DNA from: Chitinophagaceae bacterium
GTDB taxonomy: Bacteria; Bacteroidota; Bacteroidia; Chitinophagales; Chitinophagaceae
Reading direction: 5' to 3'
Length of the DNA: 64,000 nt
NCBI GenBank assembly: GCA_041486045.1
Contig: JBGPKR010000003.1
Coordinates: 4,295 to 68,294 of the forward strand
The notes below the pieces were generated by a model that saw only the letters and a list, made by a program, of their open reading frames with translations, did no database searches and was not told the DNA's origin. Within the stretch, counting starts at the first letter, position 1, and every line of letters begins with the position of its first letter. Of this stretch, positions 7,131 through 63,078 are shown piece by piece. A program made the position numbers and the translations under genes.

Positions 7131-8612
7131 ATGACTGCTGTTGATTCATACGAAGTAGTAGTAGGGCTGGAAGTGCATGCACAACTGCTTACACAAAGCA
7201 AATTATTTTGCGGTGACAGTATTGCTTTTGGTGCAGAGCCCAATACGCATGTCAGCCCCATTACTCTCGGCCACCCGGGAACATTACCAAAAATGAACAA
7301 AAAGGCAATTGAGTTTGCCATTAAAATGGGCCTGGCCTGTCATTGTGAAATTGTAAAGCATAATTATTTTGTCCGTAAAAATTATTTTTATCCCGACCTC
7401 CCTAAAGGATACCAGGTGTCACAACACAGCACACCCATTTGCAAGGGAGGGTTTATAAAAATTAAAACAAATGCCGGTGAAAAAAGTATCCGGCTAAACC
7501 GTATTCACCTGGAAGAAGATGCGGGTAAAAGCCTGCATGATGCTGACAGCAGCAATACCTGTATTGATTATAATCGTGCCGGCACCCCTTTGATCGAAAT
7601 CGTAACGGAGCCGGACCTCCGCAACGGGGAAGAGGCATTTGCTTATTTGATGGAGATCAGGAAAATGGTCCGCTACCTGGAAATATGCGATGGCAATATG
7701 GAAGAAGGAAGTCTTCGCTGTGATGCGAACATTTCTGTACGTAAAAAGGGTGAAACAGGATTAGGTACAAAAGTAGAAGTAAAGAATTTAAACTCGATCC
7801 GGAATGTAAAAAGAGCTATTGAGGCAGAGGCAAAAAGACTGATTGATAAAATGGAACAGGGGGAAATTATCAGCCAGCAAACAAGAAGCTTTGATGCAAA
7901 TAACGGAACAACCTTTACCATCCGGGATAAAGAAGATGCTGATGATTACCGGTATTTTGCCGAACCTGATCTTACTCCCTTTCACCTGCAGGATGAATTC
8001 ATTGAGAAAATACGCCGCAGCATTCCTGTTTTACCCGAAGAAAGGACAAAAAAATATATTTCAGAATTTCAGCTTTCAGAATATGATGCCAGCGTACTGA
8101 CAGAAGAAAAATATTTTGCGGATTATTTTGAAAATGTGATTTCCTTTCTCCCCTCTCCACGGAGTGGAGAGGGGTCGGGGGTGAGGTATAAGGCGGCGGC
8201 CAACTGGATGCTGGGCCCGGTTAAATCATGGCAGAATGAGAACAATAAAGAAATTGGTGAATTTCCCATAAGCCCTGAACAGCTTGCTTCGGTAATTAAG
8301 CTGGTTGATTCCGGGAAAATCAGCTTTTCGGCAGCCTCCACAAAATTATTTCCCCGGGTATTACAAAACCCTGGCAGGGATCCGGAAGAAATTGCAACAG
8401 AACAAAACCTTATTCAGCAGTCTGATCTGTCAGATATCCGACCCATTGTTGACAAGGTGCTGGAGAAATTTGCAGATAAAGTGCTTGAATATAAAAAAGG
8501 AAAGAAAGGGCTGCTGGCTTTGTTTGTCGGAGAAGTGATGAAACAGTCAAAAGGCAAAGCTGATCCGAAGATCACCAATAAGTTATTACTGGAAAAATTA
8601 AAATCAAAATAA
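7131..8612 (+). CDS. gatB: Asp-tRNA(Asn)/Glu-tRNA(Gln) amidotransferase subunit B
   Basis: VGLEVHAQL, RKNYFYPDLPKGYQ, DYNRAGTPLIEIV, GSLRCDANIS, DYRYFAEPDL. Confidence 0.98.
   Translation: MTAVDSYEVVVGLEVHAQLLTQSKLFCGDSIAFGAEPNTHVSPITLGHPGTLPKMNKKAIEFAIKMGLACHCEIVKHNYFVRKNYFYPDLPKGYQVSQHSTPICKGGFIKIKTNAGEKSIRLNRIHLEEDAGKSLHDADSSNTCIDYNRAGTPLIEIVTEPDLRNGEEAFAYLMEIRKMVRYLEICDGNMEEGSLRCDANISVRKKGETGLGTKVEVKNLNSIRNVKRAIEAEAKRLIDKMEQGEIISQQTRSFDANNGTTFTIRDKEDADDYRYFAEPDLTPFHLQDEFIEKIRRSIPVLPEERTKKYISEFQLSEYDASVLTEEKYFADYFENVISFLPSPRSGEGSGVRYKAAANWMLGPVKSWQNENNKEIGEFPISPEQLASVIKLVDSGKISFSAASTKLFPRVLQNPGRDPEEIATEQNLIQQSDLSDIRPIVDKVLEKFADKVLEYKKGKKGLLALFVGEVMKQSKGKADPKITNKLLLEKLKSK
8148..8186 (+). 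repeat. Palindromic repeat element inserted in frame in gatB
   Basis: ctcccctctcc-acggagt-ggagaggggtcgggggtgagg = LPSPRSGEGSGVR; perfect 9-bp stem cccctctcc/ggagagggg. Confidence 0.8.
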
Positions 8613-57014: not shown

Positions 57015-57188
57015 GCCTCCCCAAACCCCTCCGAACGCTTACGCCAAAGCTTCAGCGTCGGCGCAAGGAGGGGCTTTAAGAAGACCCTGATAATTTTTTC
57101 GAATCTTTTTTAATGTAATTCAATCTTGACAAGAATATTTCTATAATGACTCTTGCTAAGCCTCCCCTTCGGGGAGGTTGGAGGGGCT
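57015..57188. repeat. Inverted dyad of GC-rich palindromic elements between mreB and mreC
   Basis: gcctccccaaacccctcc[...]aaggaggggcttt (57015-57077) and aagcctccccttcggggaggttggaggggc (57158-57187). Confidence 0.7.
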
Positions 57189-62230: not shown

Positions 62231-62337
62231 GGCCCACCTAAATCCTTCCTAGGGGAGGACTTTAAACTTCTAAATTTGAGAGCTCAATCATTTGTTCAGT
62301 ATTTTCAAACTAAATTTCCCCTTTAAGGGACAGGGGC
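62231..62337. repeat. Degenerate inverted dyad of palindromic elements between rodA and the MBL gene
   Basis: ggcccacctaaatccttcctaggggaggacttt (62231-62263) and tttcccctttaagggacaggggc (62315-62337), same layout as the mreB-mreC dyad. Confidence 0.6.
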
Positions 62338-63078
62338 ATGAAGATCATTCCGCTTTCCGAAGGCACATTTACCATTGATAAAACCAAACTCTTTGTCCCT
62401 TTTGATAATCAGAGCCATGATTTACAGAAAAGAACGATTGGAAGTTTACTGGTGGAAGTGCAGCCATTTGTTGTCATTACCTCAAAGGACATCCTTTTGC
62501 TGGATACCGGGCTTGGTTTTGAAAAGAATGGAGCTTTACAATTGCATCGGAACCTGATGGATGCCGGAATTAATCCCTCCGAAGTAACTAAAGTGCTCGT
62601 TAGCCATTTGCATAAGGACCATGCAGGTGCAATATGTATTGAACGGGAGGGATCGGGGGTAAGACTTTCTTTCCCCAATGCCCGGTATTATATACAGCGG
62701 AAGGAATTAGCTTTTGCATTTGAAAAAGGGTTTCCGTCTTTTATCACGGAAGAGTTGGTCTGTCTTCAAAATGCAGCGCAGGTGGTATTGCTGGAAGACA
62801 ATGGTGTTATTGATGAGTATATCCATTATGAAGTTACAGGTGCACATTCGCCGTATCACCAGGTATTTTGGATAAAAGAAGATGGTGAAACGATTTTTTT
62901 TGGCGGGGATGATGCGCCGCAATTGCAACAGATGAAACACAGGTTTGTGGCTAAATATGATTTTGACGGGAAAAAGAGTATGGAACTTAAGAGAAAGTGG
63001 TGGGAGAGAGGAAGAAAAGAAAAATGGACTTTTCTGTTTTATCATGACGTGAAAAATCCTGTTTGGAGATTCCAATGA
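62338..63078 (+). CDS. MBL-fold metallo-hydrolase
   Basis: LLDTGLG, SHLHKDHAG (HxHxDH), GAHSPYH, FLFYHD. Confidence 0.93.
   Translation: MKIIPLSEGTFTIDKTKLFVPFDNQSHDLQKRTIGSLLVEVQPFVVITSKDILLLDTGLGFEKNGALQLHRNLMDAGINPSEVTKVLVSHLHKDHAGAICIEREGSGVRLSFPNARYYIQRKELAFAFEKGFPSFITEELVCLQNAAQVVLLEDNGVIDEYIHYEVTGAHSPYHQVFWIKEDGETIFFGGDDAPQLQQMKHRFVAKYDFDGKKSMELKRKWWERGRKEKWTFLFYHDVKNPVWRFQ

Follow-up and report, generated by a model that had tools for sequence, protein, structure and literature searches.

An in-frame triplex-motif repeat in gatB of a Chitinophagaceae bacterium and its possible link to DUF559 nuclease cassettes

The gatB gene of a Chitinophagaceae bacterium (assembly GCA_041486045.1) contains a 39-bp GC-rich repeat that is translated in frame as part of the GatB protein. 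We analysed it within a 64,000-nucleotide stretch of contig JBGPKR010000003.1 (positions 4,295 to 68,294 of the forward strand), referred to here as the window, in which the gatB coding sequence occupies 7131..8612 (+) and the element 8148..8186 (+). By its sequence the element is a G/C-rich intrastrand triplex motif (TM) of the BoxC/PIT/TM class, and the reading that we favour, with a probability of roughly 0.8, is that it is a solo TM repeat, derived from a cassette, that is tolerated in a flexible loop. The repeat class has been known for thirty years, its origin, mode of movement and function having stayed unexplained; its colonisation of genes in frame and its link to DUF559 nuclease genes were not found in print.

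A three-armed element within gatB

The gatB frame encodes 493 amino acids and is intact and open across the element in the list of open reading frames (ORFs). The product has complete Pfam GatB_N (residues 9-292) and GatB_Yqey (352-490) domains, and solved GatB structures align with it end to end (PDB match, E = 1e-136). The element, CTCCCCTCTCCACGGAGTGGAGAGGGGTCGGGGGTGAGG, adds LPSPRSGEGSGVR between YFENVISF and YKAAANW. An earlier, sequence-only reading of the window had described a 39-bp GC-rich element lying in frame in gatB, which the sequence, the intact ORF and the Logan contigs described below bear out, and had given it a perfect 9-bp stem, which needs correction. The perfect stem is 11 bp long, being formed by a pyrimidine arm CCCCTCTCCAC (8150..8160, +) and a purine arm GTGGAGAGGGG (8164..8174, +) around the 3-nt hairpin loop GGA (8161..8163, +), and folds as DNA at -12.8 kcal/mol (z = -3.2). 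Nor is the element simply palindromic, because the conserved tail forms a third arm, a mirror repeat whose sequence changes together with that of the stem. This arm, GGGGTGAGG (8178..8186, +), mirrors the GGAGAGGGG portion of the purine arm (8166-8174) and is separated from it by the 3-nt spacer TCG (8175..8177, +), a second loop of the same length as loop 2 of the Escherichia coli triplex motif TMECO (PMC4666352).

The arrangement is the design of a class II purine-motif intrastrand triplex. Our definition of the class is a pyrimidine arm, a loop, a purine arm, a short loop and a mirror arm, with arms of at least 8 nt and with G*G-C, A*A-T and T*A-T as the allowed triads. The gatB copy fits it through CCCCTCTCC (8150-8158), GGAGAGGGG and GGGGTGAGG, with loops of 7 nt (3 nt when the full 11-bp stem is counted) and 3 nt, and all nine of its triads are allowed (seven G*G-C, one T*A-T and one A*A-T). 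Neither half of the element has a match with three or fewer mismatches elsewhere in the window, where none is expected by chance, and 100 shuffles gave 0 matches; a chance origin of the element is excluded. An Rfam search of 8100-8240 in evalue mode gave only sub-threshold chance matches to hairpin families, and the element is thus not a described RNA family.

The ends of the repeat are defined by metagenome data. Among Logan contigs from four sediment metagenomes the summed depth rises 6-20 fold exactly over 8147-8187, with edges at 8147/8148 and 8186/8187, and independent contigs cover gatB together with the element with 0 differences, which confirms the junctions and places the repeat boundaries at 8148-8186. 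These data also bear on whether the repeat could have been misjoined into gatB during assembly. The genome is a metagenome-assembled genome (MAG) of 308 contigs, one of which (C194) starts inside a copy, and the gatB gene of a relative (G002) is interrupted by a 100-N gap at this site, but contigs from three independent runs span both junctions without a difference, and dozens of independent assemblies have the insert at the same codon. An assembly artefact is thereby refuted.

A repeat family read through in enzyme genes

The MAG (3.87 Mb, 41.5% GC) contains 5 near-identical copies by a pattern search and 27 full-length copies by an nhmmer profile, so that the motif is repeated in the genome as the sequence-only reading had anticipated. 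Copies are 33-59 bp in length. A covariance model built from 12 well-aligned copies, which like the profile recovers the gatB element, gave 49 matches with both strands of the palindromic part counted, and the custom triplex scanner returned 86 matches as against 15-25 in Markov-shuffled genomes. All of the perfect G/C-rich scanner matches belong either to the gatB-type (main) family or to a second family with the arms TCTCCCCT/AGGGGAGA/AGAGGGG and CCTCCCC/GGGGAGG/GGAGGGG.

The three arms co-vary. At the variable position, 12 of 18 copies have C-G*G, three have T-A*A (arms CCCTTCTCC/GGAGAAGGG/GGGATGAGG) and three a mismatch, and in three copies all three arms are shorter by one base together. 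This three-way covariation is indirect support for folding of the single strand into a triplex. Conservation, as judged from it, tracks the DNA arms and not the peptide. In three copies (C110:5721-5769 in leuS, C149:6032-6083 and C64:14668-14716) the hairpin loop itself houses a second repeat, the perfect 18-nt palindrome TCCCGATAGCTATCGGGA, which in the leuS copy is translated as ...PDSYRD.... Assemblies break at these repeats; the copy that opens contig C194 is cut by the contig end (C194:1-25).

Nine of the approximately 27 copies lie deep within long ORFs for housekeeping enzymes and are translated in frame. Eight of the hosts were verified with Pfam (GatB, an XDH-type FAD/2Fe-2S subunit, PurH, a CN-hydrolase, AroC, an amidohydrolase, AsnB and NadB), and the ninth, LeuS, was identified from its translation. 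The gatB locus shows that such repeats can sit in frame inside essential enzymes. Solved homologues show a gap at the repeat peptide of 10 aa for GatB (3H0L and 3AL0), 11 aa for PurH (4EHI) and about 9 aa for NadB (1CHU). The repeat is forward in five of the coding copies and reverse in four, the reverse ones all being in the LTPNPSP frame. One of the six frames of the repeat contains a TGA, and no in-frame stop is present in any of the nine host genes.

We considered whether the inserts are removed before the protein is finished. An intein or spliced homing element was ruled out, because the junctions lack splice residues: the N-terminal Cys/Ser and the C-terminal His-Asn followed by Cys/Ser/Thr are absent at the gatB junctions (...VISF|LPSP and GVR|YKAA), and also at the junctions of the AroC and LeuS cassettes described below. 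The element might instead be skipped during translation or excised from the mRNA, for which the GC-rich 'byp' elements of yeast mitochondria and T4 gene 60 provide parallels and for which the strong hairpin in the mRNA would be suitable. However, the net length is a multiple of three, none of the nine hosts has an in-frame stop, the variants at the gatB site differ greatly in length and yet all stay in frame, and there is no evident pair of take-off and landing codons. We regard a bypass as very improbable. Inserts that are translated in this way yield spurious 'domain fusions', break assemblies and inflate the apparent protein diversity of metagenomes.

The gatB site among relatives

Comparison with 31 related genomes shows what the element replaced. 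In 19 of their 23 full GatB orthologues the insert is absent and six residues (xHTxNY) are present as against sixteen here, a net gain of 10 aa (30 nt); the predicted orthologue gap of 10-13 aa was thus found, at 10 and not 13. At the insertion site some 17 nt (5-6 codons) of gatB have given way to 47 nt. This is seen most directly in a filled and an empty allele whose products are 98% identical (91.7% at the nucleotide level), in which the same flanks surround either CAAAATACAAGCAATAA, of 17 nt, or the 47-nt form, with no target-site duplication in the comparison. Among members of the same genus, G013 has a T-A*A variant at the site, G016 a tandem double, and G002 the 100-N gap, which is positioned exactly at the insertion site (C59:2215-2314).

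In a large protein collection, an insert at this codon is present in 75 of the 120 closest GatB proteins and absent from the other 45. The peptide is not conserved in distant GatBs, the insert being absent outside one group of Chitinophagaceae, and on metagenome contigs no orthologous filled site was found, with only distant GatBs among the matches listed. The forms at the site include singles, tandems of two and three, duplications of the third arm only (GVRMGVRS), nested second elements (...GLSAEALAKAGVR), double-sided palindromic forms (LTPNPSPRSEEGQGMRMGVK) and remnants (ISFLPSY). They range from 12 to more than 45 aa, and the frame is kept in all of them. The 75 filled sites provide a natural series of independent variants in which the mutation of triplex-forming DNA by arm duplication, nesting and decay can be followed. 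In five GatBs (P0012, P0026, P0030, P0054 and P0113) a nested element encoding LPAEALAKAG/LSTEASAKVG is present between the purine arm and the third arm, and the coding sequence of this peptide also occurs just upstream of purH (C13, about 6600).

On a GatB tree computed with the insert columns excluded, presence and absence require 15 changes, at least eight of which are forced by well-supported branches; shuffled labels require 36. In most sister pairs of differing state the 40 residues that flank the site on either side have diverged more than the remainder of the gene, and in one clade the filled and empty alleles each have their own derived residues (...RP as against ...NN). The clade-specific residues in both filled and empty alleles suggest to us that old alleles have been exchanged by recombination and not that insertion was repeated. 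Independent recurrent insertion at a single codon, which we considered as a cause of the incongruence, was rejected on the strength of these residues and of the diverged flanks in most sister pairs. Among related species, duplications, nested insertions, decay and exchange of alleles make the gatB site a hot spot of change.

An AlphaFold2 model from a 50-sequence alignment (mean pLDDT 76, with flanking blocks at or above 90) has a helix at residues 327-338, an irregular stretch at 339-348 and a second helix at 349-371, with pLDDT below 50 at 345-349. The insert is thus modelled as a low-confidence loop, rich in Pro, Ser and Gly, joining two helices in GatB's helical domain at the start of the Pfam GatB_Yqey region, in agreement with the earlier placement of it in a loop near the GatB tail domain.

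That reading had further proposed that the insert is a palindromic element specific to the Bacteroidota that has been domesticated, in which case the loop might now serve GatB, for example in contacts with tRNA or with GatA/GatC. The insert is kept in 75 of the 120 closest GatBs, always in frame, and is in the half of the protein that handles tRNA. Against this, it occurs in tandem, nested and truncated versions whose lengths run from 12 to over 45 aa, its presence differs between close relatives, conservation follows the DNA arms and not the peptide, and the model assigns low confidence to the loop. Taxon specificity has been largely refuted by the finding of the exact motif in many phyla. 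Together, the varied forms and the eight or more switches of state fit an unstable passenger and not a domesticated part; nothing indicates a function of the insert in GatB, and we consider domestication improbable.

TM repeats and DUF559 genes

This genome has three DUF559 genes, and each lies between inverted second-family TMs, one of the genes being in frame inside cinA and the others in the argF-argB and trpB-trpA gaps. The cinA cassette (C174:1930-2470) encodes a DUF559 protein of about 150 aa between inverted TM ends within an open frame of 597 aa. In the 31 relatives, too, DUF559 (PF04480) genes often form part of longer open frames, of 400-1,500 aa. Around 40 of these genes a strict scan found 1.26 TM/kb within 150 nt as compared with 0.023/kb elsewhere in the loci, and a relaxed scan found 2.10 and 0.056/kb, an enrichment beside DUF559 of 37-55 fold. 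In-frame cassettes are found in cinA (four genomes, one site), metH (three genomes, one site), an adenine-deaminase-like gene and leuS (two sites). One well-supported DUF559 clade with one type of end is present in cinA, metH and the adenine-deaminase-like gene, so that the cassette must have moved as a unit.

The connection extends to the gatB-type repeats, which bracket DUF559 in the LeuS of G016. Furthermore, the AroC of this genome has a solo LIPGPSPQVEKGV, and at exactly that codon the AroC proteins of several relatives contain LIPVPSPQAEKGA-DUF559-PLSTRGEGLGVR. At LeuS site B, G016 has a full cassette and G001 a solo TM, and this genome has neither. The occurrence of full cassettes and solo repeats at identical sites suggests that the solo copies are probably cassette remnants. 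The leuS gene of G001 (L286) has a full DUF559 cassette at site A as well as three solo repeats in other loops, all in frame, and one of these solo repeats is at a C-terminal site that is also filled in the LeuS of this genome.

The association is not confined to these genomes. In a pattern scan of one genome per species the exact motif was found at more than 120 loci in the Chloroflexota, Cyanobacteria, beta- and gamma-Proteobacteria, Acidobacteriota, Planctomycetota, Nitrospirota, Verrucomicrobiota, candidate phyla radiation (CPR) and Bacteroidota, so that the repeat family is not one of the Bacteroidota as had been supposed. DUF559 is present at nine of 120 such loci, within 117 nt of the repeat in seven. 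Long ORFs that span the motif include Dus (CPR), MnmE (a cyanobacterium), CarB and UxaC (Bacteroidota) and DNA methylases, several with DUF559 adjoining. In E. coli K-12 the stop codon of the DUF559 gene ycjD falls within a degenerate TM; a duplicated copy of the gene's 3' end survives as a remnant about 100 nt downstream, and TMECO no. 9 follows it directly, about 170 nt downstream of ycjD (NC_000913 1351040-1351840). DUF559 genes are enriched among predicted inversion targets (PMC9881135), as expected of a gene between inverted repeats. Our literature searches on DUF559 found nothing on mobility or repeats.

These observations suggest a most likely history of the gatB element. The repeat would have reached gatB as the end, or as an ORF-less derivative, of a compact cassette consisting of a pair of inverted repeats around a gene for a DUF559 nuclease of the Vsr-like PD-(D/E)XK type. 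Such a cassette would enter genes without breaking the frame, and internal deletion would leave a solo repeat. The insert would persist because a flexible surface loop tolerates it and not because GatB needs it, and the site would since have been reshuffled through the instability of such motifs.

Several points weigh against this reading. No GatB with a full DUF559 (PF04480) cassette was among the matches listed, either in the search of the closest GatBs or with a chimeric query of GatB plus cassette, which retrieved many LeuS::DUF559, AroC::DUF559 and MetH::DUF559 proteins; a cassette origin of the gatB copy is therefore argued by analogy. A TM was detected within 150 nt of only 8 (strict scan) or 19 (relaxed scan) of the 40 DUF559 genes. 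Solo TMs number about 27 in this genome against three cassettes, none of which has main-family ends. No target-site duplication was seen and no cut site is known. Finally, the evidence that a single strand forms a triplex comes only from the E. coli version in vitro, and a search in vivo did not detect one (PMC4666352).

The absence of a GatB cassette among these matches, the half of DUF559 genes that lack a detectable motif and the excess of solo repeats together raise the possibility that the nuclease is a passenger. Solo TMs could then spread without DUF559, through template switching or repair at structured DNA or by means of another enzyme, with DUF559 either carried along or using the repeats as a target. 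The roughly 10:1 ratio of solo copies to cassettes and the lack of a main-family cassette in this assembly would fit such spread, as would the observation of Holder et al. that no mobility genes are near the TMECOs of E. coli (PMC4666352). However, every cassette end is a complete TM, inverted and not split, one nuclease clade with one end type occurs in three host genes, full cassettes and solo TMs share identical codons in AroC and LeuS, and TMs are strongly enriched next to DUF559. We think that spread without the nuclease is unlikely, and continue to favour a cassette-derived repeat in gatB.

A more general proposal, which we put forward as tentative, is that BoxC/PIT/TM repeats belong to pan-bacterial selfish cassettes of about 0.45 kb, either as their folded ends or as solo or ORF-less derivatives; the sole gene of such a cassette would encode the DUF559 nuclease, and the cassettes would colonise essential genes in frame in surface loops and spread by nuclease-driven, homing-like conversion. 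If this is so, in-frame cassettes would be expressed within the host protein and could not be lost by simple disruption, and the gatB site, with its eight or more switches, its seemingly co-converted flanks and its replaced 17-nt target, would be a footprint of conversion. In any event, the gatB, AroC and LeuS sites tie the solo repeats to a candidate partner in DUF559, including YcjD of E. coli, and make an old question testable at the bench.

Comparison with other repeats

The in-frame insertions recall the Rickettsia palindromic elements (RPEs), reportedly described by Ogata et al. in 2000. RPEs are 100-150 bp long, are restricted to Rickettsia and its relatives, and are found in frame in housekeeping genes as tolerated surface peptides; we know of no transposase for them. 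The sequence-only reading had drawn this parallel, and the genome-wide repeat with its nine coding copies supports it: both are hairpin-forming repeats, in frame in protein-coding genes and absent from orthologues. The present element differs in its size (39 bp, in a family of 33-59 bp), its pan-bacterial distribution, its unrelated sequence and its third mirror arm, which RPEs lack.

The BoxC/PIT literature is said to include work by Bergler in 1992 and by Bachellier in the 1990s. Further sources on the BoxC/PIT/TM class are those of Hoyne and Maher (2000/2002), and Holder et al. (2015) studied the motif, earlier known as BoxC and PIT elements, under the name TMECO, with the pattern CCCTCNCCC-N3-6-GGGNGAGGG-N3-GGGNGAGGG and 3,610 occurrences in 262 proteobacterial genomes (PMC4666352). 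The 23 copies of E. coli K-12 are always intergenic, strains differ patchily in copy number, and the genome is more variable near the motif (PMC4666352). The gatB repeat resembles TMECO in having a C-rich arm, a loop, a G-rich arm, a 3-nt loop and a mirror G-rich arm, in its G/C-rich sequence of about 35-39 nt with the shared core CTCTCC/GGAGAG/GTGAGG, and in being multi-copy, patchy in close relatives and locally unstable. Its register is nevertheless shifted by one position (CCCCTCTCC as compared with CCCTCNCCC), so that it departs from the strict pattern and is a relative of TMECO and not a TMECO copy. It also differs in that a third of its copies, the nine in verified enzyme genes, are translated, and in that a candidate mobility gene, DUF559, adjoins the repeats both here and, as ycjD, in E. 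coli.

Repetitive extragenic palindromic (REP) sequences and REPINs are short repeats with secondary structure, possibly mobilised in trans by RAYT, a single-copy nuclease gene flanked by inverted repeats (PMC3116915, PMC3733652). The TM repeats resemble them in structure and in possibly being mobilised in trans by a nuclease gene between inverted copies, but have no GTAG/CGTC tag in their consensus (CTCCCCTCTCCAC...GTGAGG), and their candidate partner is a Vsr-like PD-(D/E)XK DUF559 protein and not a Y1 (HUH) transposase; REPs are, moreover, extragenic. The replacement of 17 nt by 47 nt in gatB, with no target-site duplication, is also unlike the insertion of a miniature inverted-repeat transposable element. 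The gatB locus itself has a solo TM and not a TM-DUF559-TM cassette, although same-family bracketing and shared solo and full sites are found elsewhere.

The Vsr/DUF559 fold class includes the EDxHD homing endonuclease I-Bth0305I (cited in PMC3424549), and conversion of gatB alleles with diverged flanks would fit a homing-like process. Enzymes of the I-Bth0305I class differ in belonging to group I introns or inteins that are spliced out, whereas the cassette remains in the finished protein, and the activity of DUF559 is a predicted one. A literature search on the 'small dispersed repeats' of cyanobacteria found nothing relevant in the library searched.

Other elements in the window

Two intergenic regions, 57015-57188 and 62231-62337, had been put forward as relatives of the gatB element. 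They do belong to the same broader TM class, but they are not copies, as neither matches it with three or fewer mismatches or with the nhmmer profile or covariance model, and both are of the second family. Each consists of two second-family TMs in inverted orientation, 55-80 nt apart, and contains no ORF.

The first pair, located between mreB and mreC, consists of a left, reverse-oriented TM at 57015..57081 with a nested insert in its loop, and a right TM at 57162..57186 (+), found in the triplex scan, that reads CCTCCCC ttcg GGGGAGG tt GGAGGGG. The 5' end of the left TM (GGCCTCCCCAAACCCCTCCGAA ... CTTTAAGA..CTGATAATTT) is almost the same as the left end of the DUF559 cassette in cinA (contig C174), and 57015-57188 is likely an ORF-less derivative of a cassette of that type. 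The second pair, at 62231..62337, is a decayed inverted pair of short TMs (CCACCTAAATCCTTCCtagGGGAGGA ... TCCCCtttaAGGGAcAGGGG) that was recognised by eye, having been missed by the strict scan, and is likely an ORF-less remnant of the same class.

A further candidate, on the evidence of the sequence, is present at 62641..62664 (+) within the gene for an MBL-fold hydrolase. This segment (GGGAGGGATCGGGGGTAAG, encoding EREGSGVR) resembles the purine and third arms of the gatB repeat without the pyrimidine arm, and may be the decayed right half of a TM copy.

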